Positions 21,247-61,863 of a DNA stretch of 64,000 nt are shown piece after piece. The notes beneath the pieces were generated by a model, which searched no databases, had not been told where the DNA came from, and was given only the letters and a program-made list of their open reading frames with translations. The stretch spans positions 1,240,001-1,304,000 of the forward strand of contig JAWMAR010000106.1 of NCBI GenBank assembly GCA_036785375.1, read 5' to 3'. This DNA is from Leucoraja ocellata (lineage: Eukaryota). A program made the translations under genes and the position numbers. Positions within the stretch are counted from its first letter, which is position 1; each line of letters starts with the position of its first letter.

Positions 21247-22223
21247 GAGTAAACCCTCGTCATTACGGACCTCTTTGTAATGGATTTCGGTTATAGTGGA
21301 CTGTGGAAAGCACAGAACACGTGGGAATGTTTGATAAACTGCACCAAACTTCGCTTGGGTAGTTTACACCCCAGCGGTATGAACATTGACTTCTTCAATT
21401 TCAGGTTGTCCTTGCTTTCTCCCTCTTTCCCCTCCCCTTCCCAGCTCTCCCACAGCCCACTGTCTCCACCTCTTCCTTTCTCCTTCACCCCCCCCCCCCC
21501 ATCAGTCTGAGGAAGTGTCTCGACTCGAAACGTCATCTATTCCTTTGCTGCAGAGATGCTGCCTCACCTGCTGAGTTTCTCCAGCATTTTTGTCTACCTT
21601 ACGCCAAACTAAAGTTACCCTGGGAAGGCCGTTGGACTGACAAGCCGTTGAGATTGACAAATAATTGAGACTGACAAGCCTTTTGATTAGATCGACACTT
21701 ATCTCTATTAAACAATGTAACAAACGGTCTTTAGTATTTTTAGCCTGCAGTGAGAAAAATACATTTTGTACGCTCAGCAGATTAGGCAGCGTCTATGGAA
21801 GGAGGAATGGAGAATGGAGTTAACGTTTAAAGTCAGTGTCCCTTAACCCTGAACTCTGGGCTGGCCGCTGGTCGTGGGAATCTGACAGAGCGAGACAAGG
21901 TTTCCTCACCATGCCACACAGCCACGCCAACGTCAAAGATCTCCCATTTTGCTCTCATTCATTGGCTGCAGGAATCAGGAGCAGTGGTTATTGTTGTTTC
22001 CTAGCTGCACTGGACAAGGTGGTGCCAGGCGGGTTTCTAGTGCCACTGCGCACCGTGTGGTGAGGCAGGTCCCACTGGGTTCTCAGTGACTGGACTCCGG
22101 GATCCTGACCGGGCCGTGGTATCAAACCATTACTCGGTTATAGTGGAAATCAGCAATAATGGGCACCATTCTCTCCCCCCACCCCCCCCCCCCCATATGG
22201 TCTGTTATAACGAGGGTTTACTG
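21247..22223. mobile_element. pogo/Tigger-like non-autonomous DNA transposon interrupted by a Penelope-derived insert
   Basis: TA|(G)AGTAAACCCTCGTCATTACGGACC ... GGTCTGTTATAACGAGGGTTTACTG|TA inverted termini. Related internal sequence occurs at about 26950-27100 and 48403-48570. Confidence 0.7.
21345..21600 (+). mobile_element. Penelope-like element 3' end: GIY-YIG C-terminus plus pLTR with hammerhead motif
   Basis: RLGSLHPSGMNIDF (typical Penelope endonuclease end), a pyrimidine tract, then CTGAGGAAGTGTCTCGACTCGAAACGTC. The same layout occurs at about 32815-33200 and 44890-45155. Confidence 0.8.
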
Positions 22224-22419
22224 TATGTATTTTTGTTCATAAGTGAAATTGCCCCGAGGCAAATAAGAATTGGATGTAAACTGGGTGCTGCAAATGGGAA
22301 TGGGTGCACAGGTGCTAAAACTCAAATTGCCATCTAAACACGCAGCTGCTTTTGAGTCGTGTATGTTTTTGACTCTCGAGTTGACAGTCTGATTAGCAGC
22401 ATACAACTAATGAATAAGC

Positions 22420-22850
22420 GTAGAATTAGGCCATTTAGCCCGTCAACTCTCCTCTGCCATTCAATCATGGCTGATCTATCTCTCCTCCCTAACCCCATTC
22501 TCCTGCCTTCTCCCCATAACCTCTGACACCCGTACTAATCAAGAATCTATCTCTTCCTTAAAAATATTCTCTGAGGGCCTCTGCAGCCTTCTGTGGCAAA
22601 GAATTCCACAGATTCACCACCCTCTGACTAAAGACATTTCTCCTCATTTCCTTCCTAAAAGAACATCCTTTAACTCTGAGGTTATGACCTCTGGTCTTGG
22701 ACTCTCCCACTAGTGGAAACATCCTCTCCACATCCACTCTATCCAAGCCTTTCACTATTCTGTATGTTTCAACGAGGTCGCCCCTCATTCTTCACAACTG
22801 ACAAACGTTCACCTTTGGATAACTTACTCATTCCTGGGATCATTCTTGTA
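22420..22850 (-). mobile_element. CR1 3' end
   Basis: MRGDLVETYRIVKGLDRVD...FSQRVVNLWNSLP. Confidence 0.9.
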
Positions 22851-23549
22851 TAACATTTATGGTGCAGAAATTATGATAGGAGTATTAATGTCATGGCGAA
22901 TTCATCATGCTGAATAACATTGCCACAGGCTGATTGACCTCTGCTACATTTACTCCCATCTCAGTTGGTAGAAGAGTGTTTTATCAAAGTTATGTCTTTG
23001 AACATGTTCGCTGATAAGATAGTGGGAGTGTTCGGATATAAAGTTCAAAGCCAATAAATTCACATCTCGTTTTAGAGATCACATGTTTTTTTTGCTAATT
23101 AAACAAAAACAAGATGTCACATTATAGATATTTTAGGATTAGTTTTGAGTGATATTCATGAAATCAATGGAAGAGTTGACCGGGGTTTTATGTGTTGTTG
23201 CCATGTTTTATAATGCCTGCTGTGTATGCTTGGCTTTGAGGTCGTTTTTCAGCCGACATTTTACTCAGTATGATGAAGGAAGTCTTATAAAAAGTGGGCA
23301 GTTTGTTGAAACCCAGGGCCCCAACCTTAGTAAAGCTTGGATGCTTCAACACACCCAGCACTTCGGAACTGGACTGGCAGATTTTCTGAATAATTGATTA
23401 TAACTCTTACTAATTGAATATTGCTGCTATTAATACACCAACACAATTTAACCTTCGTTTAGATATTAATATAAATTTTCCAATGAATTAAAGGGAGCAA
23501 AATGCAGTGGGTTTAAAAAGAATTCTTAAAAGAGCGAGTTTATAGGGAA

Positions 23550-23767
23550 GGTAGACACAAAATGCTGGAGTAACTAAGCGGATGAGGCAGCATCTCTGGA
23601 GAGAAGGAATGGGTGACGTTTCGGGTTGCGACTTTGTCTGAAGAAGGGTCTTGACCGAAACGTCGCCCATTCCTTCTCTCCAGAGATGCTGCCTCACCCG
23701 CTGAGTTACTCCAGCATTTTGTGTCTACCTTTGATTTAAACCAGCATCTGCAGATCTTTCTTACACA
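23550..23767. mobile_element. Fold-back non-autonomous Penelope-derived element with 14-bp TSD
   Basis: Inverted partial pLTR followed by a direct pLTR. GAGTTTATAGGGAA at 23536-23549 and 23768-23781. Confidence 0.85.
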
Positions 23768-25100
23768 GAGTTTATAGGGAACACAGAACTGGGATTGTAA
23801 GAAAGCGTGAGAAACAGGAGCTCCCAAAAGTATTTTAAGGGAGTGTGGGAATGTTGTCCCTGGAGGGGTTAAAGAGGGCGCGAGGAATGAGGCTGGATTT
23901 GAATAATATTGTATACCAGCTTCTCGTATAGTCTACGTAACATGCCTTTTACGGCACAGAAATTATGATAGAGGAGTATTGATGCTTTATGTGTCACCTG
24001 CTAAAATCTGTTGTGCATTTTGTATTCCAAATCTATGGAAAGTTGAACTGCTAACTATTACTAATGAACTACTATGTCTTGATAAGTATGGGTGTCAGAG
24101 ATTACGGGGTAATGAGGTTAGGAGGGAGAGATAGATCGGCCATGATTGACTTGATGGGCCGAATGGCCTAATTCTGCTCTTATCACATGATCTAATGATT
24201 ATCATGACATTGATTCATTAAAACCAGTGGTGATATGGCACAATCACCATGGGTCATTGCTGTAGGGCACAGGAAAACTCAGCTTTAATAAATTATTCAA
24301 ATGGCTTGTGGGTATCTGGGATATAAAACTTTATAAAATCTCCACTTCCACCGACATTCCTTCTCTAGCTTCACAATTCACACTTCAAACTTATTGACTT
24401 TTACTTTCTGTCTTTCCACCTCTGCCCTTTGTCCCACCATCTATCTGTCTATCAAATAACTCTCCACAGCTTTGTTCGCCTATTACCTGCCAGGGTTTGT
24501 CCTGCCCTTCTCTCTCTGGAAGCTTTCTTTCCCCCCCCCCCCCCACCTCCACAATCAGTCTGAAGAAGGGTCCCGACCCAAAATATCACCTATCCATGGA
24601 TAGACACAAAGTGCTGGAGTAACTCAGCGGGTCAGGCGGCATCTTTGGAGAACATGGATTGGTGATGTTTTTGGTCCGGACCTTTCTTCAGATTCGAGGT
24701 GCTGCCTGACCTGCTGAATTACTCCAGCACTTTGTATCAATTTTAAACTATCATCTGCAGTTCTTTGTTCTACCTGTGATGTCACCTGTCCATGTTCTCC
24801 AGAACTGCTGTGTGATCCGCTGAGTTACTTCCACACTTTGCATCTCCTGCTGTAAACCAGCATCTGCCGTTTCCTTGTTTTCTACATAAACATGTTTTTG
24901 CCAGTTTCAAGGCTCTCATTAAAGCTTCTGGGAATTCAGGGTTGGTCAGGCAACGTCCCTGGAGAGAGAAGTCCAGTCATGGTTTCATCAGATCTGGAAA
25001 TGTCAGAGTTGTACAGGGTTCGTGCAATAGAGGAACACAAGCATGAACCTAGGGAACGGTCTGTACTTCAGCAACAGGCAGCTGAGGTTAGATAATGAAA

Positions 25101-25336
25101 GAACTGGCCTCAACTACTCTCTGGAACTCTCTGCCACAGAGGGTAGTTGAGGCCAGTTCATTGGCTATATTTAAGAGGGAGTTAGATGTGGCCCTTGTGG
25201 CCAAGGGGATCAGAGGGTATGGAGAGAAGGCAGGTACGGGATACTGAGTTGGATGATCAGCCATGATCATATTAAATGGCGGTGCAGGCTCGAAGGGCCG
25301 AATGGCCTACTCCTGCACCTAATTTCTATGTTTCTA
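25101..25336 (+). mobile_element. Young CR1 3' end (same subfamily as 54133-54903)
   Basis: Near-identical to 54678-54895 with tail TTTCTATGTTTCTA. Confidence 0.9.
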
Positions 25337-26090
25337 ACAGCTGTTGCCAGGATGGAGGCTAGGAATGGGACAAGAACCAAAGTTGGTGAAAATAGGAATA
25401 ACAGGATCAATACCAATAGATCAGAGAATTTGGAACAGGAGTGAGTGAGATACGTTCACAGTAACATTGACTATCGGGTTAAAGTTCTACAAAGTAGTCA
25501 CCCAGTTATTGTTCCCTTTGCTCTACCCTCTATACATCCTCTACAGGCAAAGCATAGCTCCAATGTTATCTATACATTTGCCACTGAATATTAGGTGTTA
25601 AAGAGGAGTGTTACCTGCACATGTTGATCTGGGGGGCAGTTGTACCCTCTGCACAATAACCAGGGACAGAGACTTGGTCTATGAATGTGTGCGGAGAAAT
25701 GATTATACAGGAGCAAGTAACCTGACCAGGTTACTGTACAACAGTAAGTGGTGAGAGAGCAGTAATAAGACAAAATCATGTAATAGCTAGAAACGCTGTG
25801 TACTATCACACCCTATGCCCTCTTTTGCTGCTACCACAGGCAGGCAGTACTGAAGCCCAAACACCCACACCACCAGCGACAGGAACAGCTTCTTTCCTAC
25901 AGCGAGCAGGTTCTTAAACCATCCTGTACAACCCTAATCCTAGCTTAGCAACAGAACCCTACAGACATCTTGTTTTACAATTGTGGTTTGCATAGCCAGT
26001 AGTTCTGCTATAAGGCTTGTTTCCAGACTGGGAATTAGATATAATGTGATTAATGAATCAGGGAGCACTATTCCAGAAGGGTCGCAACCT

Positions 26091-26612
26091 GAAATATCAC
26101 CTATCCATGTTCTCCACAGATGCTGTCTGACTCACTGAGTTACTCCAGCACTCTGTGAAATGTCACTTATCCATGTTCTCCACAGATGCTGCCTGACCCG
26201 CTGAGTTACTCCAGCACTCTGTGAAACGTCACCTATCCATATTCTCCAGAGATGTTGCCTGACCCGCTGAGTTACTCCAGCGCTCTGTGAAACGTCACCT
26301 ATCCATGTTCTCCACAGATGCTGCCTGACCCACTGAGTTACTCCAGCACTCTGTGAAACGTCACCTATCCATGTTCTCCACAGATGCTGCCTGACCCGCT
26401 GAGTTACTCCAGCACTCTGTGAAACGTCACCTATCCATTTTCTCCACAGATGCTGCCTGACCCGCTGAGTTACTCCAGCACTCTGTGAAACGTCACCTAT
26501 CCATGTTCTCCACAGATGCTGCCTGCCCCGCTGAGTTACTCCAGCACTCTGTGAAACGTCACCTATCCATGTTCTCCACAGATGCTGCCTGACCCGCTGA
26601 GTTACTCCAGCA
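26091..26612 (+). repeat. 66-bp minisatellite x8 derived from the Penelope-type pLTR
   Basis: Unit GAAACGTCACCTATCCATGTTCTCCACAGATGCTGCCTGACCCGCTGAGTTACTCCAGCACTCTGT starting every 66 bp from 26091. Confidence 0.95.
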
Positions 26613-28736
26613 TTTTGTGCTCTTTATGTAAACCAGCAACTGCAGTTGCTTGTTTTTACTATTGGGCATTACCCGGGCCGAATTGGCTGTAACAGTTTGG
26701 TGCAGGGATAGAACGGGTTTGGAGGAATATGGTCCAAGCGCAGGCAGGTGGGACTAGTGTAGCTGGGACATTGTTGGCCGCTGTGGGCAAGTTGGGCCGA
26801 AGGGCCTGTTTCCACACTGTATGCCTCTATGCTTCTCTATAACACAATTTAGATTGGGAACTAGAGAACAACATAAAAGTTACTTTGGAAATTGACAAGC
26901 AGGAAAAACAGTCTAAGGCACAAAGACTTCCACGTAATCTCACATTAGTCCCTTAAGAACACAAACTATCAGCTTCACGACATCCAGCCATTAACATTGA
27001 TAAGCAATGTCTTCTGTTGACACTTGTTCAATGATACTCTTATTAAACAATGTAACATATGGACTTTAGTCATTTTAGTGTGCTGCAATAAAGATAAACT
27101 TAAAGCTATTAAAATGTCCTTTTTAAAAAAAAATTCTACAGGGGGAAAAAAAAATTGCGAGTATGAAAGTCTCTGAAATAACCCCCTTTTTGAAATGAAC
27201 ACAATTATTAATATTTATTCGGAAGGCAATTACATTTTAGTAGAGTATAGCCACTGTCAGTCTGAAGAAGGGTCTCGACCTGAAACGTTATCTATTCCTT
27301 TTTCTCCAGAGATGCTATCTGACCTGCTGAGTTACTCCAGCACTTTGTGTCTATCTTCAGTGTAAACCAGCATCTGCAGTTCCTTCCTACACATTATAGT
27401 AGAGCTACCTGCAACGTCTTCTTTTAGGCACAGTCTTTTTGTTTTCATTGTTGCAAAATTGGTGTGTAATTAATGTATTTGTGTGTTGTCCATGTCTGTC
27501 TTTGTGATGCTCCTGGAAGAAAGATTTTCATTGCACCTGTAATCACGGCATTTGTGCACATCAAAAGCTTGGCTTAAGTTGTGACTGGAATCCATAAGGC
27601 TACGTGCCTGTCAAATGTCTGAGTGAGAGACAGAGTTGTGACTGGAGAAGGAGTAGAGAGATGAAAGATGAAATTGTTAAACATCATGTGGATACTAGAT
27701 TCTGCTGGAAGAGTTGGAGTAGCCAGAGTCAATGCATAATGTTGAGGGTAATACTTCGGGGCATGTTGGGTGAGCTTCATGGACACTGGCATGGGGCTGA
27801 ACCTGTTGCTGAACGGCTCTCTTGAATTATTGATGGTATACTTAGTCACCGTGTGGAGCAATTATATTACAACTGAAACCAGGCTGGGACCAACACCCTT
27901 GTGAATCAGTAGGTTGGGTTGGGGACAGGACATTGAACTTAAAATAAAAGGAGTTGTAAGCAGGTTAGTTGAAGCCATTGTTTTTTTTGTTCTCTTTGAA
28001 TATAACTAAGTTTAAATAAAATCATTCGTGGAATCTAGATTGGCCTTTATTGTCCATCTTCTTGGGAAGTAGTTGTAAATGACCTTCTTAACTCTGTGAT
28101 CCTACTTGTGAAGGTATTCACACTGTGCAATTGGGGAGGATATCCCAAGATATATTTTAGATGGAGATTTGATGCATTTCTAAGTCACTGTTGTCTGTAA
28201 GTAGGGGGAACCTTCAAGTGGTGGTGTTCTCTTGCCAGAGAATCAATTTAAATGCAAAATATGCAGATGCTGGAAATCTGATGTAAGACAGAAACCGTGG
28301 GGAAATACTCAGCAGGTCCGGCAGCATCAATGGTGAGAGAAATGGGGTTAACTTCTCATGGATCCTGTGCTTTCTATATCAGTGATCAGGGTGTTTGCTC
28401 AGTAACTTGCTGTAAGCTACTGTGAATGAAGATGCATAAACCGCTGGCGTAATTGCTATTGAGGTGACTGAATACTGAAATACGTGGAGAGGATGTTTCC
28501 ACTAGTGGGAGAGTCTAGGTGATAGCCTCAGAATTAAAGGACGTTCTTTTAAGAAGGAGATGAGGAGGAATTTCTTTAGTCAGAGGGTGGTGAATTGGTG
28601 GAATTCTTTGCCACAGACGGCTGTGGAGGCCAAGTCAGTGGATATATTTGAGGCAGAGAGAGATATATTTTTGATTAGTACGGATGTCAGAGGTTTTGGG
28701 GAGAAGGCAGGAGAATGGGGTTAGGAAGTAGATATA

Positions 28737-28938
28737 CAGTGGCTTGCAAAAGTGTTCATACCCCTTGAACTTTTCCACATTTGAAAACCATGTATAATTT
28801 TCCTTTGACTTTAAAATTATGCACCACTTTGTGTTGGTCTATCACATAAAATCCCAATAAAATACATTTACGTTTGTGGTTGTAACGTGACAAGATGTGG
28901 AAAAGTTCAAGGGGTATGAATACTTTTGCAAGCCACTG
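28737..28938. mobile_element. Tc1-family MITE / internally deleted Tc1 nested in a CR1 3' UTR
   Basis: TA|CAGTGGCTTGCAAAAGTGTTCATACCCCTTGAACTTTTCCACAT ... ATGTGGAAAAGTTCAAGGGGTATGAATACTTTTGCAAGCCACTG|TA. The CR1 sequence resumes on both sides. Confidence 0.93.
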
Positions 28939-29354
28939 TAGATCAGCCATGATTGAATGGCAGAGTAGACTTGGTGGGCCGAATGGCCTAATTCTTCTCC
29001 TATCACATATGATCTTATGATAGGGTGTCGTAGAGTTGTACAGCGTGGAAACAGGTCCCTTGCCCGTGCCGTCTAATGTATTTTGTTCTGAGTGAAAGAC
29101 AGACACAAAATGCTGGAGTAATTCAGCTGGTCAGCAATAGGTGATGTTTCGGATCGAGACTCTTCTTCAGGGTCTGATGGAGGGTCTCGACCCAAAACGT
29201 CACCTATTTCTTTTTCTCCAGAAATGCCGTTTGACCCACACAGTTACTCCAGCTTTTTGTGTTGTTCTTTGGTGTAGACCAGCATCTGCAGTTCCTTCCT
29301 ACACATTTAGTCCTGAGCCACGTTGTAACTCTCTGCTTTGTTTCTTTGTTCCAG

Positions 29355-29392
29355 ACGCATTGAAGGAACCGGACGGCTGCGTGGGCTCTGAG
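29355..29392 (+). CDS. PNPLA7: PNPLA7 38-nt coding micro-exon (predicted)
   Basis: tttctttgttccag| (D)ALKEPDGCVGSE |gtactt. Phase 1 to 0, exactly bridging exon 1 and the 75-nt exon. Confidence 0.6.
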
Positions 29393-29858
29393 GTACTTTG
29401 TCCGTTTCTCTATACATCGGCCATGGACGTCAGTACTGCCAAGTCCAGGGTATTGGTCAAGCTCTTGGTGCATACATGGTGATGGGATTGGTGTGAGATG
29501 TAAAATGGTATCAGATTGTGCACGGTGCAGTAGGAGGCGGACTAAGCCATCGGAATATAAAATAGAACATGGTCTATTCTGACTCTCACAATTTTATTAG
29601 TTCAATCAGATTTCATGAAGTGCGATTTTTGTTGGCTGTTGTATGGGCCTTTCTCATATGGTAAACGCAACTTAACTGTCAGGTCAAGGTGTAGCCATGC
29701 AACTGGTACCATGCAGTCCAGTTCAACATGTGGGACATGCTCATCCCCATGGAGAGTCTGCTTTGGCGGACCAGGTGGAAGAGATCTTTATCAACCAACG
29801 GCTGGAAAGGCGATGCAGCAACGCACTGTGGAATGCCAAGGGCTAATCAGAGCACTAA

Positions 29859-30165
29859 TTGGCCTGTCCCACATGCAACATTTCCGGCGATTGCCAGCAC
29901 CCGTCATATGTCGCCGAAAATGTTCAACTTGTTGAACATTCAGCGGCGACCAGAAAGACACTACCTCTCTTTGGGCGACTGAGGAGACTACTCACGACCA
30001 TACAGGTGACACCCTGGCGACATGTCATGAGTAGCCGCCCAAAGAGTCGTACCTTGTTCTGGTTGCCGCTGGATTTTCAACATGTTGGAAATTTTCGGAG
30101 CCCTGCCGCGACTATGACGGGTGCTGGCAAGTCGCCGAAAAAATCGTGTAAGTGGGACAGGCCCT
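29859..30165. mobile_element. PIF/Harbinger-type palindromic MITE
   Basis: Termini GGCCTGTCCCAC / GTGGGACAGGCC, long imperfect internal inverted symmetry, and TAA on both sides (29856-29858, 30166-30168). Confidence 0.85.
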
Positions 30166-30766
30166 TAAAGATGACATGGCCATCCACTGCAGCCAAGGAG
30201 TCTCCAGACGTGATGATTTTTCATACCACTGTACTCTGACTTCTGCAGGCAAAAGAGTGGGGTTGTTACAGTGCAACAGCTTCTCCACATTAAACTCATT
30301 CACGAGTGGGTTTTTGTGCCGCCCTCTTCTCTAGACTCGTGAGCCATGTCAGAACTCACCAGAATTGAGACTGCACAACCACCATCGACGGCACCGACGG
30401 GCAACCACCAAACCCACCTTGATAGTGTGAAACATTCATCTGATTTCCGTCTCTCTGGATGTTGCCTCGCCTCTTGAATACTTCCATTATTCTCCCTTTT
30501 ACTTTGATTTCCAACGTTACAGTTTTTGCTGGGTAGGCAAGTGTTTTTATGAGAACAGGAGACTTAATAAAGAGAGTTTTATAGAGGAAGGTCATTTCCT
30601 TTAGTGAAAAACAAAGGACCTTGGGTATAAAGTAATTGGTAGAAAGACTAGAGGGAGAGATGGTAGAAATGTCATTCAGTTGACAGAGGTTGTGGTTCTT
30701 GCTGCTTGAAAGGGCGGAGAATGCAAAAAGCTATGTATTTGGACATTGGCATGGGTTATTTGGAGA

Positions 30767-31075
30767 GGTGGTACGGTGGCACAGCGGTAGAGTGGCTGCC
30801 TTACAGCACCAGGGATCCATGTTCAATCCCGACTATGGGTGCATGTTTGTACGGAGTTTGTACGTTCTCCCCATAACCTGTGGGATTTTTCCGGGTGCTC
30901 CGGTTTCCTCCCACACTCCACAGACGTACAGATTTGTAGGTTAATTGGCTCAGAATAAATGTAAATTGTTCCTAGTGTGTGTAGGATAATGTTAGTGTAC
31001 GGGGATCACTGGTCGGCGTGGACTCGGTGGGCCGAAGGGCCTGTTTCCACTTTGTATCTCTAAACTAAACTAAAC
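30767..31075 (+). mobile_element. HE1/V-SINE-type SINE
   Basis: tRNA-like head, V-domain CCGGGTGCTCCGGTTTCCTCCCAC and tail GGGCCTGTTTCC...(CTAAA)n. Confidence 0.88.
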
Positions 31076-31723
31076 CTGTGTACTACAGGGCTATGGGTCC
31101 AACGCTGGAACGGGGGATTTTCCAGCTACACAGGCAGCCAATTATTTTGTTACTCTTAATTATCTGAATTTCTTCACGTTTAGAATTGTCAGAGATGCTT
31201 CAGAAGTTAATGTCCGTGTTACCATGGTGTAGAGTTTGGAGTAGGGGAAATTGTAGTCCTGAGTTTTGAGAAAAGTTTTCAGTTTCTGCAGTGGGTCATT
31301 GAGTGCTCCCCTGTTTTCATTCAGTGGTTTGATAGTTCATCACTTGGGCTATATAAAGGTTTTATGGTATTACTCAATGTAAATGGTTTGTAAATGCATG
31401 CTTTTGATGTTGATCCCAATGCACCCCAAATTAATGATAACAGGACCAACGTAAAGAATCTGCAAACAAAAAGAAGACAAAATAATTTAGAGCGTTCAGT
31501 GGGATATGGAGCAAATGCAGGCAAATGGACCTGGAATAGTTGAGGCATTTTGATCAGCATGACCAATTTGGGCTGAAGGGCCTAGTTTTGGATGACTACT
31601 ACTGCCGAGCCGTACGAAACAGAATTTATAGATTACACCATGCTCTCCTACTCAATTATTGTTAGACTTTGGAGTTAATAAAACACCTTTTTAAAGTGAG
31701 TATTTTCACATTAATTGCCACAG

Positions 31724-31798
31724 GTTGGGATACCAATTAGTGGGGACCTTCCTGCATTAGTCCAGCAGTTTGTGGAAGACAAACTCCAAACCACCATG
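31724..31798 (+). CDS. PNPLA7: PNPLA7 75-nt symmetric exon
   Basis: cacag| VGIPISGDLPALVQQFVEDKLQTTM |gtacgt. 25 codons ending TM, like the human pre-TM segment ...SPSTM. Confidence 0.8.
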
Positions 31799-34490: not shown

Positions 34491-34544
34491 AGATAGTTCT
34501 ACAGTCCACGTATATTAATATTATTCTTTGAATATTTCTTTCAG

Positions 34545-47864: not shown

Positions 47865-48017
47865 GTAATGGACAGGGAACTCGAGAACCTCAAGTCCACC
47901 AGGTCTTGGGATTAATATTTGTTTCATTATCAGCTGTTTGACGTACCGTTACAATTTGTGACTGATTCTCCCAATGCAGCACCTTGTCTCCTTCGTCACT
48001 AACATTGGTGATAACAA

Positions 48018-50222: not shown

Positions 50223-51260
50223 GTAAGGACGGACAGCCTCTCCCTCACACACCACTGCTCCCACCATTCACAAGATACAATTTGATGGCACTGGGCCTGT
50301 ACTTGCTGGAGTTTAGAAGGATGAGGGGGAGGACCTCATTGAAACATACAGAATAGTGAAAGGCCTGGATAGAGTGGATGAGGAGAGGAGGTTTCCACTA
50401 GTGGGAGAGTCTAGGACCAGAGGGCACAGCTTCAGAATTAACTGAAGTTCCTTTAGGAAGGAGATGAGGAGGAATTTATTTCGCCAGAGGGTGGTGAATC
50501 TGTGGAATTCATTGCCACAGAAGGCTGTGGAGGCCAAGTCAGTGGACATTTTTAAGGTGGAGATGGATAGGTTCTTGATTGATCCAGGAGAATGGGATAG
50601 AGAGGGAAAGATAGATAGATCAGCCTTGATTGAATGGTGAAGAAAAAGGTTGGGAGACATTTCGGGTGGGGAACTTATTCAGAATGTTCAACAGACATGA
50701 AACGTCACCCATCCCTTTTCTCCAGAGATGCTGCCTGACCAGCTGAGTTACTCCAACACTCTGTGTGTATTAGCGGAATGGTAATATGAGGCAATAAACT
50801 AAACATGATTTAAAAAATCTTCTTGTTCCTTTTAAATGGACAAACGACACCCCTCCTAACATTGCACAGATCACCTCGTATAGAGGGGGGGGGGGGGGGG
50901 GGGGGGGCAAGCACTCAGCCAGTAGCGTGGATCAGCTCACAGAGATTTGACGATGCCTTCAATCTTTACCAAGTCAGTGGATATTTTTAAGGCAGAGATA
51001 GACGATTTTTTTATTGGAACGGGTGTCAAGGGTTATGGGGAGAAGGCAGAACAATGGGGTTAGGGGGCAGAGATCAGCCATGATTGAATGGTGGAGGAGA
51101 GGGGGATGGAGAGGTGGAGGGGGAGTGAGGGAGGAGTGAGGTGAGGGAGAGGGGGGGGGTGGTAGAGAGGAGGTGGGTGGGGGAGGGAGGGAGCAGAGGT
51201 GCAGGTGAGAATAGTTGTGTAAAGCGTTGATGTTGAATGTCACCATTGTGTGTTGATCAG

Positions 51261-51341
51261 GATGGCACTGAAGTGGTGGTGAAGGAGGTGTTACCAGGGG
51301 ACAGCGTACACAGTCTCCTCAGTATCCTCGACGTCATTACG
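51261..51341 (+). CDS. PNPLA7: PNPLA7 exon
   Basis: gatcag| [27 protein letters not shown] |gtgagt. Confidence 0.97.
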
Positions 51342-52962
51342 GTGAGTGAACCCAGCACGACAGCAGAAGGCCATGTTATTTATGACTGAACTAAAGACCT
51401 GTAGGGCAGTTTTGATTTGTATTGTGTACCGACAGTGGTGCTCCAGCTAGCATTAATTGTTGTACAATATTTAATACAACTTTGTAGGTTTCTATGAATA
51501 AAATGACTCAACGCTGATTTATTTTGCATAATGCACCATAATTTTCCTCCTACGATCCAGGGATTAATTACTGCCATGTACAGGAAGGAACTTCAGATGC
51601 TGGTTTACACCGAAGACAGACACACAATGCTGGAGTAACTCAGCGGGTCAGGCAGCATCTGTGGAGAACGTGGATAGGTGTGTGAAGAAGGTGTCTCAAC
51701 CCCAATACATCACCTATCCGCATTCGCTACAGATGATGTTGTGACCTGCTGAGTTGCTCCAGTACTTTGTATCCTTTAGTGCATTAACTGACATCTGCAG
51801 TTCCTCGATTCTACAGAAGACAGACACACACAATGCTGGAGTAACTCAGCAGGACAGGCAGCATCTCTGGAGAGAAGGAATGGGTGACGTTTCGGGTCGA
51901 GATAGACACTTCTCAACCCGAGACGTCACCCATTCCTTCTCTGGAGTAATTACTACCATGTTTGGTCATGTTTTTGAGCTGATTCTCCGTTTTGGTGCAC
52001 AGAGTTAACAATGTTTTGCTCTCATCCACCGCACATACTGACATCTTCACCATTAGCCTTTTAAGTCCCAGAATGAGCCAGTCTAAAGAATGGTCTCAAC
52101 CCAAAACCTCACCCATTCCTTCTCTCCAGCGATGCTGAGTTACTGCAGCACTTTGTGTGTCTCTCTCCAATATGAAACTTGTTGTAGTGGGTTAAGTTCT
52201 ACACCATTGCAGAATAAAGCACCATTGAACCATGAACCATTGAGTCTGAAGAAGGGTCTCAACCCGAAACATCACCTATTCCTTTTCCCCAGAGATGCTG
52301 CCTGACCCGCTGAGTTCCTCTAGGTTTATGTGTCTTATCATTGAACCATTGGCTCTGCTGCATTCTAATCAATTCCTCTTTATTGCAGTGAATATATCTT
52401 GTCTTCAGACAATGATTATTTTTCTATTCCTGATGTTTCTGCGTAGGGTTACTAGAGTACCAATAACTCTTTGTTTTTTCATTCATAACCATCCTAGGCA
52501 ACATGTGTTGGTGTGGTTTGGGTTTTGAGACACGCCAGAAGCAGCTTGTGCTCAGTACACACTTGTGTATCTTTAAGTTGGGGCAGCTGGGAGTGAATAG
52601 TTGCAGGAACTCTGACACAATCCCACCTCCAACACACAGAGCTAAGACACTGAGACCCAGACTCATTCTATCCTGGGGAGAACATTTCAAAGCTTTGCCC
52701 TGGCTTTTCTTGCTGCATGGTTTAAATCTGATTGAAGATAGACACAAAAAGCTGGAGTAACTCAGCGGTTCAGGCAGCATCTCTGGAGAGAAGGAATAGG
52801 TGATATTTCGTGCCTTCAGATATTAAATTTGATTGACCTGGCTTTGCTGTTTAGGTCGAGTAACTTATGTCCCCTTGTGGCCAGTCAGATAACCAACCCT
52901 AAACGTCAGCCCTGCAACTATATTTCTGTTCGTATGTCCCAATTAGTTTATGATCATCAATA

Positions 52963-53260
52963 GTTTAGACTTTAGGGATACAATGCAGATACAGGCCCTT
53001 TGGCCCACCGAGTCCGCGCTGAACAGCGATCACCCCAAACACTAGCACCTTCCTACACCATTTACAATTATACCAAAGCCAGTTAACCTAAAAACCTGCA
53101 CGTCGTTGGAGTGTGGTGGGAAACCGTAGCACCTGGAGGAAACCCGCGTGGTCCCAGGGAGAAAGTACAGACTCTGTACAGACAGCACCCGTAGTCAGGC
53201 AGCTGTAACGTAGCCGGCGCTGTAAGGCAGCAACTCTACCACTGCGCCACCGTGCTGCCC
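52963..53260 (-). mobile_element. HE1/V-SINE-type SINE
   Basis: Reverse complement starts GGGCAGCACGGTGGCGCAGTGGTAGAG, then the V-domain and tail. Further copies at about 35698, 37090, 38877, 39455, 40410, 59630 and 60860. Confidence 0.85.
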
Positions 53261-54132
53261 AATACTTAATCAATGTTTGAAATGTTTTATGTTCCTGTGC
53301 TACATTGCTGGGATATCTCCTGTACTTCTAGACACCGCTTTTCTGTCTCTCTTTTGTAAAGTTTGTGGCTTAATATAAAATAAGAAAAGAAGTCAATTTG
53401 GCACAGTTGAAATTAGAATGCTGGAACTTCCACAGAGGTCTTTGTGTGCTGGTTTTAACCAAGTTCAAAATATCAATTTCCTCTAAATGTGAAGTGAAAT
53501 GTCAGTAACAATGTTAAACTTTAAAGGTGTCGGAAGTTGAGTTATAAGTTTGCAAGTAATAAAAATGATTTAAAGTTGGTTTAGTTTTCATTCCTTATGA
53601 TGATTGTTTAATTGTATCCCCATCTTTAATACTGTGTGTGCTGCTCTAAGTAGCCCCAGGGAATTTAGTTCCCATTATGGTTGTATTTTACAATAGTAGT
53701 AGAAATTTTACTGAACATGAACTAGTTGCTAAAAACATAGTTGTGAAGATTGATTTTTAATGAGATTTCTCTGCTCTGGTTCTCTTGAAGTGGCCGAACA
53801 ATTGCACTTGAGTTTTCTCATCAGCATTGATCACGCTGACAAAAAGCGCTGATGCCACCATGTTTCATATTTAGTTTATGTGTAGGAAGGAGCTACAGAT
53901 GCTGGTTTAAATCGGATAGACACAAAATGCTGGAGTAACTCAGCCGGACAGGCAGCATCTCAGATGAGAAGGAATGGGTGACGTTTAGGGTCGAGACCCT
54001 TCAGTCTGAAGAAGGGTCTTGATCCGAAATGGCAACCATTCTTGCTTAGTTTAGTTTAGAGATAAAGGGCAGAAACAGGCCCTTCAGCCCACCGAGTCCA
54101 TGCCGACCAGCGATCCCTGCACACTAACATCT

Positions 54133-54903
54133 GTGTATTATCTAAATGGTGACCGATTGGGAAAGGGGGAGATGCAGCGAGACCTGGGTGTCATGGTACA
54201 CCAGTCATTGAAGGTAGGCATGCAGGTGCAGCAGGCAGTAAAGAAAGCGAATGGTATGTTAGCTTTCATTGCAAAAGGATTTGAGTATAGGAGCAGGGAG
54301 GTTCTACTGCAGTTGTACAGGGTCTTGGTGAGACCACACCTGGAGTATTGTGTACAGTTTTGGTCTCCAAATCTGAGGAAGGACATTATTGCCATAGAGG
54401 GAGTGCAGAGACGGTTCACCAGACTGATTCCTGGGATGTCAGGACTGTCTTATGAAGAAAGACTGGATAGACTTGGTTTATACTCTCTAGAGTTTAGAAG
54501 ATTGAGAGGGGATCTTATAGAAACTTACAAAATTCTTAAGGGGTTGGACAGGCTAGATGCAGGAAGATTGTTCCCGATGTTAGGGAAGTCCAGGACAAGG
54601 GGTCACAGCTTAAGGATAAGGGGGAAATCCTTTAAAACCGAGATGAGAAGAACTTTTTTCACACAGAGAGTGGTGAATCTCTGGAACTCTCTGCCACAGA
54701 GGGTAGTTGAGGCCAGTTCATTGGCTATATTTAAGAGGGAGTTAGATGTGGCCCTTGTGGCTAAGGGGATCAGGGGGTATGGAGAGAAGGCAGGTACGGG
54801 ATACTGAGTTGGATGATCAGCCATGATCATATTGAATGGCGGTGCAGGCTCGAAGGGCCGAATGGCCTACTCCTGCACCTAATTTCTATGTTTCTATGTT
54901 TCT
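54133..54903 (+). mobile_element. Young 5'-truncated CR1 with an undisrupted ORF2 C-terminus, inserted in a SINE
   Basis: Stop-free YYLNGDRL...RDLGV...[14 protein letters not shown]...RRLRGDLIETYKIL...WNSLP...GTGY*, tail (TTTCTATG)n. SINE halves flank it. Confidence 0.95.
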
Positions 54904-55039
54904 AAACACACCAGGGACAATTTACATTTATACCAAGCCAACGGCGGTGTAGTGGTAGAGTTGCCGACTTACAGCGTCAGAGACCTGGGTTCGATCCTGA
55001 CTCCGTGCTGTCTGTATGGAGTTTGGCAAGCTCTGGTTT

Positions 55040-55444
55040 CATAGAAACATAGAAATTAGGTGCAGGAGTAGGCCATTCGGCCCTTCGAGCCTGCACCGCC
55101 ATTCAATATGATCATGACTGATCATCCAACTCAGTATCCCGTACCTGCCTTCTCTCCATACCCCCTGATCCCTTTAGCCACAAGGGCCACATCTAACTCC
55201 CTCTTAAATATAGTCAATGAACTGTGGCCTCAACTACCTTCTGTGGCAGAGAGTTCCAGAGATTCACCACACTCTGTGCAAAATGTTTTTCTCATCTCGG
55301 TCCTAAAGGATTTCCCCTCTATCCTTAAGCTGTGACCCCTTGTCCTGGACTTCCCCAACATCGGGAACAATCTTCCTGCATCTAGCCTGTCCAACCCCTT
55401 AAGAATTTTGTAGGTTTCTATAAGATCCCCCCTCAATCTCCTAA
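55040..55444 (-). mobile_element. Second young CR1 3' end, inverted relative to the previous copy, inserted in another SINE
   Basis: Reverse complement of 54494-54898 with few mismatches. Confidence 0.95.
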
Positions 55445-55949
55445 TTTCCTCCCACACTCCAAAGATGTACAGGTTTGTAGGCTACTTGGTTTGGTAAAAA
55501 TGTAAAAAAGGCACAGTCTGCCAGCAGCTTCTAAATCACAACTTGTCACCTGCTTTGATGTTTGTAACCAGATGAAATCAAGCACTCTTTTACCCAGAGT
55601 AGGGGAATCAAAAACCAGAGGACATAAGTTTAAGGTGAGGGAGAAAGATTTGATATGACCTCAGGGACAATGTTTCACATAAACAGTGGTGGGTGTATGG
55701 AATGAGCTGCCGGAGGAGTTAGTTGGAGGTAAAAAACACTTGGACAGGTATATGGATAGGATAGGACAGATTTAGAGGAATATGGGCCAAATGCAGGCAA
55801 GTGGGACAAGTAAATACATGTTGGTCGGTGTGGGCAAATTGGGCCGAAGGACCTGTTTTCACGCTGTATGACTGAGTGTGACCCAGTGAGCAGTATAGGT
55901 ACATATAGGTACATATATGTGTTCAACTATTGTTTTCTTGCATTTCTAG

Positions 55950-56078
55950 GGTTATCCTTCTCCCTATAAAACCGTTTCTGCCAGGGCCATGCAAACATCC
56001 ACCGTTCTGCGTTTGCCAGCCAGCGCCTTTCAGTCAGTCTTCCAAAAGTACCCGGAAACCCTGGTGCGAGTGATTCAG
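55950..56078 (+). CDS. PNPLA7: PNPLA7 exon
   Basis: ttctag| [43 protein letters not shown] |gtaagg. Confidence 0.97.
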
Positions 56079-56137
56079 GTAAGGATCTATTAGTTTCACG
56101 GGAAACTCGGCTGTTGCTGATGTTTGACGAAGGATAA

Positions 56138-56347
<210 letters not shown>

Positions 56348-57227
56348 TGACATCCTCTCCACGTCCACTCTATCCTGGCCTTTCACTATTCGATAAGTTT
56401 CAATGAGGTACCCCCTCATCCTTCTAAACTGCAGCGAGCTGTCAAACACTCATCATATGTTAATACAGTTCAAGAAGGTGGAATGAGTCGAGGAATAAAT
56501 GTGTTAAATGAGATGGAAGACATTAGGCACATTTAAAGGTTCGTAGAAATCTGGGGGTAAAGGACTTGAAGCAATTAATTCAGATGAATCCGAACCAAAA
56601 CATCATTAAATCTTAAACTGCTTGATATGTTGATTTCTCTATTTAATTGTTTCTACCTAAATATGAACGATCTCATTAATAGTGCTCATGCAGCATTAGC
56701 AGCTGCTGCCCCTCACAATCTAACGCTTCTGAAACCTTCTCTCAGCAAGGAGAGAGATTGTAGCCACATACATGCCTGCCCCACATATATCTGCAAATAT
56801 TTTAACACCAACTGTACCATACATTCTCACTGAGGGCAGTGATGGTTTGGTGTGAAAACCCTTTGGGATGAGTGTGGACTGAAGGGCCTGTTTCCATGCT
56901 GGATCTCCAAAAAAGCTTGGATTCTAATAATACCCCTAGCTGGAAATTAAAAAATGCATATTTGTTGGCGATGTTGTGTCATCTTAAGGAGCTTTGATGG
57001 TGTCTGAATGGGCGGACAGTGCGTTAAGTGTAAATAGATACAAAGGGTCAGGCAGCATCTCTGAAGAAAATGGATGGGTGACGTTTTGGGTCGGGACTTC
57101 CTCTGACGGCCTTCTACCCTCTCTAGACCTTTTTATTTCCAGTTTATTTCCCCACCCCCACCTCTACTTTCAGTCTGAAGAAGGGTCCCGACCCAAAACC
57201 TCGCGCATCCTTTGTCTACAGAGGTGC

Positions 57228-57650
57228 TGTCTGACCCGCTGAGTTACTCCAGCACCATCGTGTCTGACCCGCTAAGTTACTCCAGCACCATCGTGTCTGA
57301 CCTGCTGAGTTACTCCAGTACTTTGTGTCTGACCTGCTGAGTTACTCCAGCACCATCGTGTCTGACCTGCTGAGTTACTCCAGCACCATCGTGTCTGACC
57401 TGCTGAGTTACTCCAGCACCATCGTGTCTGACCTGCTGAGTTACTCCAGCACCATCGTGTCTGACCTGCTGAATTACTCCAGCACCATCGTGTCTGACCT
57501 GCTGAATTACTCCAGCACCATCGTGCCTGACCTGCTGAGTTACTCCAGCACCATCGTGTCTGACCTGCTGAGTTACTCCAGCACCTCGTGTCTGACCCGC
57601 TGAGTTACTCCAGCACCTCGTGTCTGACCCGCTGAGTTACTCCAGCACCT
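57228..57650 (+). repeat. About 33-bp minisatellite (about 13 copies) derived from the Penelope-type pLTR
   Basis: Unit TGTCTGACCTGCTGAGTTACTCCAGCACCATCG, directly following a pLTR start at about 57172. Confidence 0.93.
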
Positions 57651-57666
57651 TATGTCGATCTATGAC

Positions 57667-57879
57667 CAAGGTTTCCCAACCTATTTTGGCCCGTTTACCC
57701 CCGGCAACTTTAATAGCACATAACAATGTTATGTCACTTATTGATGAACAGATGATGAACAGATACTGGTATACCTGAACCAAGCACAGTCAGCCAATGA
57801 GAAAAAATATGTACAAATTCAGAATCAACAAATTGACCCCCTGGGTAGTTGAAATTTACCCCGGGATTGGGAACCCTTG
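57667..57879. mobile_element. hAT-like MITE
   Basis: Termini CAAGGTTTCCCAA / TTGGGAACCCTTG. Flanks TCTATGAC / GTCTATAG resemble a degenerate hAT target. Confidence 0.6.
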
Positions 57880-58201
57880 GTCTATAGTTTCAGTTTAGTT
57901 TATTGCCACGTGAACTGAGGTACAGTGAAAAGATGGATATACCAGCATCTGCACTGCTTTGGTAGGCACAAAAAGGTGGAGTAACTCAGCGGGTGAGGCA
58001 GCATCTATGGAGCGAAGGAATAGGTGACGTCCCCATCCCCCACACAAAAAGACTAAAAGGCCTCCAAAACAAAACCTTTTGACAAAATTGAATATATTAA
58101 AAAAAGGTGAAGGAGGAGGCTGCAGACGAGGCTGCCACACTGGATGGTGTCTCCACTCCGTTAATTCTCCATTCATTGTAAAGATGATTCATTTGCTGCA
58201 G

Positions 58202-58358
58202 GAAAGCCAAGCCATCCCCTTGCTGTCCTTGTCCAACATCTCGGTGCCCAGTCCCAGCAAGGCAACCAAACGGCAAGTCAGCGCCCCAGTGCTGGAGGAC
58301 GACAGCTGGGAGAAAGCAAACCGCGGTGGCGATGGCCCAGGGCACGGTGTGGACGCAG
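58202..58358 (+). CDS. PNPLA7: PNPLA7 exon (linker after cNMP domain 1)
   Basis: ctgcag| ESQAIPLLSLSNISVPSPSKATKRQV...GHGVDA |gtacga. ESQAIPL is conserved. Phase 0 to 1. Confidence 0.9.
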
Positions 58359-58416
58359 GTACGAGGCTTCCGTCTTACTCTAACTCACGGGCAGATAATG
58401 ATTCCTGCTGCTGCCT

Positions 58417-58760
58417 GATCTCCCGGTTGCCAAACACTTTAACTCCCCTGGTAGACACAAGATGCTGGAGTAACTCAGCGAGTGAGGCAGCATCTGTGGA
58501 GACGACCCGAAACGTCACCCATCCCTTCTCTCCAGAGATGCTGCCTCACCCGCTGAGTTACTCCAGCATTTTGTGTCTACCTTCGATTTTATCCAGCATC
58601 TGCAGTTCTTTCTCACACACTTTAACTCCCCTTCCCATTCCCACACTGTCCTTTCTGTCCTGGGCCTCCTCCACTGTCAGCGTGAGGCCCAGCACAAATG
58701 ATATGAACACCACCTCATATTTTGCTTGGGTGGCTTACAGCCCAGTGGTATGAATATTGC
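58417..58760 (+). mobile_element. Penelope-like GIY-YIG endonuclease C-terminal remnant split by a non-autonomous fold-back insert
   Basis: DLPVAKHFNSP | FNSPSHSHT.LSVLGLLHCQ.EAQ...HLIF.LG.LQPSGMNI. ACACTTTAACTCCCCT is duplicated at 58434-58449 and 58617-58632. Confidence 0.8.
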
Positions 58761-60124
58761 AGATAGACACACAAAGCTGGAGTAACTCAGGGGGACAGGC
58801 AGCATCTCTGGAGAGAAAGAATGGGTGATGTTTTGGGTCAAGACCCTTTTCTGTCTGAAGAAGGCTCAAGACCCGAAATGTCACCTATTCCTTTTCTCTC
58901 CAGAGATGCTGCCTGTCCCACTGAGTTACTGCAGCTTTTTGTGTCTATCTTCAATATTCGGTTTAAACCAGCATCTGCAGTTCCTTCCTACACATTGCAG
59001 CCGTTTTGCATTCATGATGTCAAATGTTGCCTTTATGGGCAGCATTCCATGCTTCAGTTACTGTTTGGTGTATTACTTTACTCATTTAGTTTCTTGTTGT
59101 CAAGTGCATTGAGAAAACATTACAATGGTTTGAAGTAGCAGTAATATGTACTTGATGGTGCATATTTGTGGTGCTTGGCGGGATATGGGGAGAAGGCAGG
59201 AACGGGGGACTGATTGGGGATGATCAGCCATGATCACATTGAATGGCGGTGCTGGCTCGAAGGGCCGAACGGCCTACTCCTGCACCTATTGTCTATTGTT
59301 AAGACAGCAATAACAAAGATGATACCATTGAGAAATTTCCATCGGACATTACAAGTGGCATTGTTGTTTTGTGGAAGGCAGTTTTATGATCACTGAAAAA
59401 TTAATGATTCTTTTTTCTTGACGTATAACACACACAGTGACAAAGGAAATGTCCCATAGTTTGCGTCAGCAATCTTTAATGTTTCTTTTGACATATTTAT
59501 TAAATATCCTTGGAAACACACGATTTATCCTTGACCCTAAAGGGATGTTCAGTGGAGAGGAACAGAAACAAAGGAGTGAATGTCGGCGTGTGGGTCATTT
59601 ATAGAGGGTGCTCAAGGACAAAAACTAATAGTGGCCCGGCATTACAGCGACTGCCTCACAAGGCCAGAGACCCGGGCGCTGTCTGTGTGGGGTTTGTAGG
59701 TTCTCCCCGTGACCTGCGTGGGTTTTCTCCGAGATTTTCGATTACCTTCCACACTCCAAAGAGGTACAGGTTTGCTGGTAAATTGGCTTGGTGTGAATGC
59801 ACAATTGACCCTAGTGTGTGTTGGGTAGTATTAGTGGGCAGGGATCGCTGGTCGGTGATGACTCAGTGGGCAGAAAGGGCCTGTTCCCCCGCTGTATCTC
59901 TAAACTAAAACTAAAATCTAATCGTGGCTTGTGCACCAGAATGAGTTGTTAGATGGAATCTAATCATGGAGCTCAGACGGTTCATTAATGGTCCAAATGA
60001 TTTCCGGAAGAGTGTGTTGATTATGAATCAAAAGGATTGCAATAGTTTATTCAGCTGCAAGTCCTTCAAGGGTGATTTACTGATGAGTGTCACGAGTTAC
60101 GAGCTCAGTGTAGAGATAGTTGGT

Positions 60125-60665
60125 CAGGCTAGAGGCAGGAAAAATGTTCCCCATGTTGGGGGAGTCCAGAGCCAGGGGTCACAGTTTAACAATAAGGGGT
60201 AGGTGGACAAAAAAGCTGGAGAAACTCAGCGGGCGAGGCAGCATCTATGTAGCGAAAGAATAGGTGATGTCGCCGATTCCTTTGCTCCAGAGATGCTGCC
60301 TCACCCACTGAGTTTCTCCAGCTTTTTTGTCTACCTTCGATTTTTCCAGCATGTGCAGTTCTTTCTTAAACAAGAATAAGGGGTCGGCCATTTAGAACTG
60401 AGATGAGGGAAACATCTTTCACCCAGAGAGTTGTGAATCTGTGGAATTCTCTGCCACAGAAGGCAGTGGAGGCCGATTCACTGGATGTTTTCAAGAGGGA
60501 GTTAGATTTAGCTCTTAGGGCTAACGGAATCAAGGGATATGGGGAGAAAGCAGGAACGGGGTACTGATTGTGGATGATCAGCCATTATCATATTGAATGG
60601 CGGTGCTGGCTCGAAGAGCAGAATGGGCTAGTCCTGCACCTATTTTTCTATTTTTCCATGTTTTT
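60125..60665 (+). mobile_element. CR1 3' end split by a Penelope-derived fold-back insert
   Basis: The CR1 sequence breaks at AATAAGGGGT (about 60191) and resumes at about 60376. Confidence 0.8.
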
Positions 60666-61207
60666 ATGTAGACAAGGTGACTTGCCCAGCAATGGTCATT
60701 GAACTATGGGTGAAAATGAGGGGGAAGGAACTACACGTGCTAAAATATTGAGATATTGTTTTGATACGTCATTTTGTTTAATATCCGGTTCTGAAAATAT
60801 CACAGGAGATTGTTCCAACCAGACATGTCCCTTTCTCTCTCATTTCTCTTTAGACATTAAACTTTAGAGATACAGTGCGGAAACATGCCTTTTGACCCAC
60901 TGAGTCCACACCGATTGGCGATCACCCCGTACACTAGCGCTGCCCTACACACACTGGGGACAATTTACAATTTTTTTCCAAGCCAATTAATCTACAAACC
61001 TGCACGTCTTTGGAAAGTGTGAGGGAACTGGAAGGGCCTGTTTCTGCACAGTATGACTCTATGACTCTCTATCCCCACCTCCCTCCAAATCCAGCGGACC
61101 TTTAATGCTCAATGTGGTGTTGCAGGTTATTGGGAATTTGTATCGTGTGTTATTGGATTAATGAACAGTTCTTTTTGCTGGGAAGTAATTGCCTTTTCAC
61201 ATTGCAG

Positions 61208-61314
61208 GAGGATTGGCGGGTGGTAAATCTGACATGAACACAGCGTGTGAGAGAGCAAGGGTCAGTCTGGTGGCAGAAGAGCACTGCTCCAGTCCTGCAT
61301 TGTCTGGTATTAAG
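61208..61314 (+). CDS. PNPLA7: PNPLA7 exon
   Basis: ttgcag| GGLAGGKSDMNTACERARVSLVAEEHCSSPALSGIK |gtaaat. Matches human SDLGMACDRARV. Phase 1 to 0. Confidence 0.9.
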
Positions 61315-61863
61315 GTAAATATCACATTGTACAACAGTTAATGAAACTGAGTTATGGGCGACTGAAGATGGATACAAATTGCTGGAGCAACTCAGTGGGA
61401 CAGGCAGCTTCTCTGGAGAGAAGCAATGGGTGAAGTTTCGGGTCGAGACCCTTCTTCAGGTCGTTAGTGAAGCCTGCAGCAGAGGCAGACCAAGTTGGGC
61501 ATCACTAACAAAGGGAAAAAATAGCATCCTGCTCTAAATCATCAAGGATCTTGGATTTGCCATTCTGGTAGTTAGCCCCGTTATAAATAGTTTGATTGAT
61601 TCAGCACGATAGAGAATCGTAATGTTAATATTATAAAAGTTGGAGCTGCTATGAAATTAAAAAAACTGAAATACTGGGCATGCACAGCTGGTTTGCCAGA
61701 GATGCTGCCTGACCTGCTGATAATCTCTGAACTCTAGAGACTCGGGGCATTGGCTTTGTCTTTCTGCACTATTATTGTTGTGCTGCCGCAAGTGAGAATT
61801 TCACTGTTCTGGCCGGGACATGTGCCAATAAAACACTCTGGACTCTTGAGTTACTCCAGCACT

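Follow-up and report, generated by a model that had tools for sequence, protein, structure and literature searches.

Short repeats that recur throughout a 64,000-nt stretch of the genome of the skate Leucoraja ocellata (assembly GCA_036785375.1, contig JAWMAR010000106.1, positions 1,240,001 to 1,304,000 of the forward strand; here called the window), which includes the host gene PNPLA7, are the pseudo-long-terminal-repeat (pLTR) ends of an intact Neptune-type Penelope-like element (PLE). They are likely to be run-off cDNAs that extend from a reverse transcriptase (RT) start inside the 5' untranslated region (UTR) to an RNA end near the core of a hammerhead ribozyme (HHR). A preliminary description of the window had read the same repeats as a non-autonomous, retrozyme-like family carrying minimal hammerhead ribozymes (min-HHRs). 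The skate pLTR family carries a known type of PLE min-HHR and is notable for its scale and for the statistics of its copy ends.

The motif CTGAAGA-A-GGGT-loop-ACCC-GAAACGTC was confirmed at 40434-40461 and 47497-47524 of the window, where it had first been reported, and all of the variants named in the preliminary description were present, but those at 21507 (stem II mismatch), 23638 (1-nt deletion), and 49422, 52246, and about 54004 (loss of the ACGT palindrome) were damaged. The full min-HHR descriptor was passed by only three window copies (27262, 40434, and 47497), and 30 shuffles of the window gave 0 to 1 matches each. In 600 kb of randomly placed genome stretches, the descriptor found 31 sites, 28 of which belonged to the skate pLTR family, and five shuffles gave 1 to 3. 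A profile of the 140-nt core recovered 85 pieces in the window, with tandem-array units counted in, and 295 pieces in the 600 kb of random genome, with none on reversed sequence. Exact cores numbered 21,383 genome-wide for the 28-mer at 40434, 62,033 for a degenerate 28-mer, and 56,521 for a third exact pattern, with a control count of 0 for each; the very high copy number proposed earlier was thus upheld, at 62,033 or more exact cores. Extrapolation from the 600 kb to the 3.44-Gb assembly gave about 1.7 million pieces, 4.6% of the DNA, and about 160,000 complete cores, figures that may be too high because some loci are duplicated in the assembly (for example, L073/L074).

The pLTR family contains the conserved core C3UGANGA9 ... 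G12AAA with U16.1-H17, together with an extra base between positions 9 and 10.1, the G10.1-C11.1 pair, and the palindromic positions 15.2-16.2. Complete cores were found in 29 of 172 sampled copies, and core positions were 75 to 98% conserved among these 172 decaying copies, with the same core in all subfamilies. Lineage-level changes were confined to loop II, position 17 (C to U), and positions 11.4 and 1.1, at both of which the change from A to G leaves a U-G pair. As the preliminary description had noted, stem I is weak: it comprises 2 bp, with only 2.1-1.1 and 2.2-1.2 paired. Rfam returned no hammerhead family match for these sequences and only subthreshold hairpin-type hits, mostly at head-to-head pairs. 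The skate hammerhead is, its short helix I excepted, the min-HHR that was described in metazoan PLE pLTRs by Cervera and de la Pena in 2014 (PMC4209133). Shared features are the CUGANGA core, the extra base before G10.1-C11.1, the palindromic 15.2-16.2 without a loop III, the pLTR location, and thousands of dispersed single motifs from truncated PLEs, with opposite-strand pairs. The skate helices I and II are 2 and 4 bp long, respectively, whereas the published consensus has a helix I of 4 to 5 bp, and the at least 62,033 exact cores of the skate compare with about 4,000 copies in coelacanth and about 9,000 in Xenopus (PMC4209133).

The origin of these repeats became apparent when the window copy at 44890 was extended outward, into DNA encoding RT and GIY-YIG domains. 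The intact element has one open reading frame (ORF) of 1,221 amino acids with an RT and, at its C terminus, a GIY-YIG endonuclease. When the ORF N terminus was used as a query, about 40 (counted by eye) of the best 150 of 2,093 candidates lay in open frames of >1,180 residues. An HHR was located 3' of the ORF in all 20 of the fetched intact-ORF loci, and in the window, DNA encoding the PLE C terminus lay 5' of the motif at 21345, 32815, and about 44890, with a fourth such coding fragment at 58618-58758 (E value, 2e-13); the derivation from Penelope suggested in the preliminary description, including the proposed link to Penelope ORFs, therefore holds. Where one PLE unit follows another, an HHR is also found 5' of the ATG, with one HHR per junction. 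Head-to-tail arrays of intact 3,946-bp units, identical or near-identical to one another, were found at C300:1139659-1147712 and C8:5608967-5613074 and are likely recent sources. In one array, the units were identical at 3946/3946 positions, and they matched a unit on another contig at 3940/3946, so the PLE was likely active recently.

By every feature tested, the element is an endonuclease-containing (EN+) PLE: partial tandems, an inverted 5' copy, an optional 30- to 40-bp tail, and target duplications are all present. The ORF contains a Cys linker, C-x4-C-x2-C, that fits the CX2-5CxxC motif between the RT and the endonuclease, which is common to Neptune and Nematis (PMC8557442), and to judge from this architecture, the element is of the Neptune/Nematis type. 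Known EN+ elements of this type (Craig et al. 2021, PMC8557442; Arkhipova et al. 2013, PMC3846280) likewise have one ORF that combines an RT, a GIY-YIG domain at the C terminus, and a Cys linker, and they share partial tandems, an inverted 5' copy, a 30- to 40-bp tail at one end, and an Inr (initiator)-like pLTR motif; inverted pLTRs, one-sided tails, and target duplications are thus already known (PMC3846280). The skate element differs from them in its extreme excess of pLTR-only copies (about 4.6% of the sampled DNA for the 140-nt core alone), in a long Pro-rich insert in the N-terminal half of the ORF, and in target duplications of up to 17 bp, in contrast to 8 to 10 bp (PMC8557442; PMC3846280). 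It comprises several subfamilies with pyrimidine-rich UTRs of about 110 to 330 nt that are very different from each other, while the core and tail are common to them. Three signals recur across the ORF-linked subfamilies (L122:4197-4314 and equivalents) and together constitute a candidate retained intron: a donor-like sequence at the stop codon, a pyrimidine tract that varies, and a CAG just 5' of the HHR.

The short pLTR copies are dispersed, are about 100 nt (short) or about 135 nt (tailed) in length, and run uncut through the predicted cleavage site. There are two fixed positions for their 3' ends, 37 nt apart and about 66 and 103 nt past the predicted cut, and their 5' ends lie about 30 nt upstream of it. 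Among random pieces, 200 of 299 reached the front edge of the HHR, and 131 of the 175 that could be anchored had no upstream UTR, with short copies outnumbering UTR-bearing copies by about 3:1 in random DNA. A sample of young copies was taken from the first 100 places listed, of which 99 were recovered and 6 were dropped as duplicates; because an exact 41-mer directly past the cut was a condition of sampling, shorter pieces were not seen. Of these 93 distinct young copies, 46 ended within 10 nt of the HHR front edge, 19 of them at G2.2, the mode; 30 continued into the UTR, and 3, representing two insertion events, ended at the cut site. A second 5' peak near a start like that of Drosophila virilis, upstream of the donor-like site, had been suggested by three window copies, but it was not seen in 53 longer copies, whose ends were scattered smoothly from -24 to beyond -715. 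Among 30 copies that retain the ORF N terminus, 3 began at the front edge, 1 was preceded by part of the UTR, and 11 started further in or could not be placed.

Exact duplications of at least 9 nt flanked 19 of 40 solo copies (2 copies were skipped), compared with a mean of 0.08 and a maximum of 1 after shuffling. A head-to-head partner was found for 114 of the 295 random pieces, and in the random sample and window together, 57 of 80 head-to-head pairs had one tailed and one short arm, compared with 33 expected (P = 2e-7). Downstream of the HHR, an 8-bp stem (alignment columns 55-62 with 114-121) was 97.5% paired and a small hairpin (71-76 with 80-86) was 92.7% paired, and both were better conserved than the HHR stems. 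The 8-bp stem, which joins the body to the tail and one strand of which is absent from untailed copies, may be an RT-binding structure.

The following scheme probably explains these ends. The PLE RNA would begin 2 to 3 nt before the hammerhead core, a 5' end that we infer from the DNA copies, and reverse transcription would start at the positions of the two mapped 3' ends, both of which precede the ATG within the 5' UTR. The analogy is with PAc, a Poseidon element of the green anole, which starts reverse transcription internally at two sites that bracket the tail, nicks both target strands, and extends them (Frangieh et al. 2024, PMC11167929). Since both 3' ends lie in the 5' UTR, a start in the first pLTR on such an RNA would give run-off cDNAs of about 100 or 135 nt, and a start in a later pLTR would give ordinary 5'-truncated or full-length copies. 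Priming of cDNA by both nicked target strands would, again by analogy with PAc, yield the asymmetric head-to-head pairs. Most short copies would be dead ends because they have no RNA downstream of the RT start. With an RNA beginning 2 to 3 nt before the core, the 5' arm of stem I would have just 2 to 3 nt, in keeping with the 2-bp helix. The fixed 5' edge may, though less securely, represent a transcription start at the Inr-like TCAGT, which matches the initiator consensus. An internal promoter with Inr and downstream promoter element (DPE) motifs is known from Penelope of D. virilis (PMC2377424).

Several observations weigh against this scheme. The modal 5' end is a G, one base past the expected Inr A, and no clear signal of an extra cap-derived G was found at the 5' ends of sampled copies. 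The upstream UTR precedes 15 of the 30 copies with an ORF N terminus, indicating that read-through tandem RNAs are also copied. RNA reads of a related species (three runs, poly(A) and single-cell, of which 1 to 5% each was read, plus one contig set) showed no pile-up of molecule starts or ends in the young-subfamily stretch, a weak test because most of the signal comes from embedded copies. It is only by analogy with a Poseidon-clade element that the RT start sites and the priming from two strands would apply to the skate; PAc belongs to a different clade, and its HHR and RT starts overlap the ORF (PMC11167929), whereas those of the skate element are found upstream of the ATG, within the 5' UTR. 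In addition, the Pfam scores of the intact ORF (GIY-YIG E value, 0.013; RVT_1, 28.4 bits) were below curated cutoffs, although RVT_1 exceeded its cutoff on a sister copy and homologs from sharks, rays, and marine invertebrates included PF01541 entries. What PAc is reported to share with the skate element, as far as inferred for the latter, is the two RT starts bracketing the tail, cleavage of both strands, a dispensable HHR cleavage, and an absence of RNA-seq ends at the cut site (PMC11167929).

A bolder version, offered tentatively and doubtful in our view, is that the PLE makes Alu-scale insertions of 100 or 135 nt in a strong-stop-like manner, with a promoter that overlaps the core and initiates RNA at the first base of stem I, a ribozyme locked by a competing helix until protein binds, and short copies that carry the promoter and spread as RNA polymerase II short interspersed elements (SINEs). 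It is also unlikely that the short units are a self-propagating, non-autonomous, SINE-like RNA polymerase II family, each member having an internal Inr/DPE-like promoter that overlaps the core of the HHR as well as an RT-binding hairpin and being mobilized in trans by the PLE protein. Such a family would have the defined ends, target duplications, and numerical excess seen here; TCAGT followed about 27 to 30 nt later by ACGT resembles the D. virilis Penelope promoter (PMC2377424), and pLTRs can mobilize unrelated DNA in trans in rotifers (PMC3846280). However, the five commonest young variants occurred in both short and UTR-bearing copies, and variants seen only in short copies had 1 to 3 members, so that no separate non-autonomous lineage, as had been postulated, is shown; these are the pLTR tips of an intact autonomous element. 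PAc, moreover, needs RNA beyond its RT start sites (PMC11167929), which the short copies do not have, and the untailed copies have only part of the conserved 8-bp stem.

The short copies could have the origin proposed above and yet owe their 5' edge to something other than a transcription start, namely, 5'-3' exonuclease trimming, or processing at a CAG|T that resembles a splice acceptor, as far as an HHR that is folded or bound by protein, or stalling of RT at a C-rich template. The modal end at exactly the first base of stem I (G2.2) and the recurrent intron-like signals are consistent with this, as is the D. virilis intron, which likewise ends at helix I (PMC4209133), but the HHR fold is predicted to be rare and no splice-like joint appeared among those listed from the RNA reads, which leaves this possibility decidedly improbable. 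Intron loss as the source of the edge was rejected for the older subfamilies, in which a search for intron-less copies gave two matches, the one inspected being an unspliced UTR variant; the young-subfamily junction was outside that search. A reading of stem-loop II as a Pol III B box was also rejected, by eye, for its poor match and wrong position.

In the preliminary reading, HHR cleavage would release the units of an active retrozyme-like family, which would then be circularized and reinserted; copy anatomy already contradicts this reading, and it is highly improbable. In its favor, subfamilies with UTRs of widely different length and sequence have an unchanged catalytic core, a G-U pair survives both lineage-level changes at paired positions, and a 2026 preprint (Li et al.) derives animal retrozymes from PLE pLTRs. 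Against it, the skate copies form neither head-to-tail HHR units nor units running from cut site to cut site, the cut site lies uncut in mid-copy, only 3 of the 93 young copies have a 5' end there, and neither covariation, predicted folds, RNA ends, nor depletion of sense copies from PNPLA7 introns points to cleavage. No head-to-tail HHR tandem units were found in the window or the 600-kb sample, from which rare arrays could be absent, and among the first 100 places listed, only 1 of 99 intervals was <1 kb and on the same strand. Like the skate copies, non-LTR retrozymes of animals (Cervera and de la Pena 2020, PMC7229834; Li et al. 2026 preprint) have a type I HHR, PLE pLTR ancestry, and no coding capacity, but they are head-to-tail units of 150 to 450 bp with canonical HHRs that are expressed as circles, whereas the skate copies are solo or head to head and span the cut site.

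Cleavage by the skate HHR is unsupported by stem I, covariation, folds, or RNA ends. Covariation, proposed earlier as a check, was not seen in two-sided form within the skate genome: in 25 chosen copies, 419 of 500 shuffles scored as high, a test of low power given the near-invariant core, and helix changes were one sided and G-U preserving only. A complete min-HHR at L221:1583-1615 (minus strand), one from 30 metagenome loci with a related RT, was dropped from the covariation analysis because it is not clearly linked to the RT; it has a 6- to 7-bp stem II and a 4-bp stem I, and its contig also holds a related RT fragment. Single-sequence and alignment folds favored a competing helix, GGGU/ACCY, formed between the 5' strand of stem II and bases that follow the cut. 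The HHR fold lay 4 to 6 kcal/mol above the best fold, and the probability of stem II was ≤0.02. The RNA reads of the related species covered the core heavily (10,527 of 12.9 million in a poly(A) run) and gave no pile-up of molecule ends, but such libraries would miss circles; no indexed record holding the stretch is on record as RNA.

With its 2-bp stem I and the predicted competing helix, the HHR is probably off in most transcripts, and if it cuts at all, it would by analogy do so in dimeric form or when assisted by the PLE protein. Published min-HHRs showed no cutting in monomeric form and weak cutting as dimers, and a 2-bp helix I has been reported for D. virilis (PMC4209133); the PAc HHR cuts only with protein, and its cleavage is dispensable for insertion (PMC11167929). 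Copies that run through the cut site suggest that uncut RNA is the template.

The literature searched, which did not extend to the repeat databases Repbase and Dfam, held no description of the skate pLTR family or of a 5' pile-up at the HHR edge, and a fixed 5' edge is not described for min-HHRs in the available excerpts of PMC4209133. In the skate genome, intact, near-identical PLEs are accompanied by insertions numbering on the order of a million, the ends of which can be mapped to the single base. Their pair of 3' ends, single 5' edge, asymmetric arms, and target duplications lend in vivo support to the model of internal initiation on two strands, which has so far been shown in vitro for one anole element. 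By the figures consulted, this is also among the most hammerhead-dense animal genomes, its 3.4 Gb holding at least 62,033 exact cores, a density that would be of consequence for host pre-mRNA only if cleavage takes place. The skate end statistics make both the role of hammerheads in PLEs and the mode of PLE insertion testable.

All of the copies listed below lie in introns of PNPLA7, whose coding exons for residues 1 to 494 span 19362..63239 (plus strand), with one exon 100% identical to a Leucoraja erinacea protein over 77% of the query. The coding exons are on the plus strand, and plus-strand copies are therefore sense, in agreement with the earlier placement of sense copies within this gene; they include all three descriptor-complete window copies. 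One of these, a short solo copy without a tail (40431..40525), starts at the HHR front edge, has a complete core (40434-40461) with a predicted cut after 40461, and is inserted in the head of another repeat, with an 11-nt duplication containing one mismatch (40419-40429 / 40526-40536). The others are a short solo copy at 47494..47587 (core, 47497-47524) and a tailed solo copy at 27259..27394 (core, 27262-27289, with a GUU triplet), which has a degenerate target duplication. Also on the plus strand are a tailed solo copy (49419..49550) with an exact 12-nt target duplication and a short solo copy (52243..52340) with an 11-nt duplication, both of which have lost the stem III palindrome.

Three plus-strand 5'-truncated PLEs were found: 21345..21598, with the last ORF codons, a pyrimidine-rich UTR, the damaged HHR at 21507, and a short 3' end; 32809..33200, from another subfamily with a longer UTR and with a damaged HHR at 33107; and 44886..45157, with a UTR, a damaged HHR at 45030, and a tailed 3' end. 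A head-to-head pair at 23535..23767 (short arm, minus; tailed arm, plus) is flanked by an exact 14-nt direct duplication. Nested insertions occupy 58425..58995, where a head-to-head pair (58439-58617; 15-nt duplication) lies inside a GIY-YIG-coding PLE fragment that resumes at 58618-58758 and is followed by a second pair at 58752-58995. Sense copies were not depleted in PNPLA7 introns (37 sense versus 29 antisense; P = 0.39), and selection against them was accordingly rejected; front-edge copies numbered 22 sense and 10 antisense.

A 66-bp tandem array of pLTR sequence at 26075..26653 (plus strand) consists of units that lack the CUGANGA half of the core and is therefore not a retrozyme array. 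A second pLTR-seeded array, of 33 bp, lies at 57194-57660, and RNA reads contained 32- to 34-nt back-jumps across the HHR region; together, the arrays and back-jumps indicate that the skate PLE seeds minisatellites. Upstream of PNPLA7, coding DNA at 7959-9882 (plus) and 14320-14730 (minus) presumably represents DPH7 and MRPL41, as judged from the translations, for an apparent gene order of DPH7, MRPL41, and PNPLA7 with the latter two head to head; PNPLA7 alone was checked by comparison. A repeat family separate from the HHR family occurs at 30804-30916, 35714-35826, 38915-39027, 40546-40658, and 48064-48176, and we take it to be a tRNA-derived, HE1-like SINE. Many tails of CR1/L2-type long interspersed elements, also outside the HHR family, were present in the window. 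Finally, an inverted copy of 44860-45160, flanks included, was found about 560 kb away on the same contig (C106:1843139-1843439) with 97% identity and represents either a segmental duplication or an assembled second haplotype.

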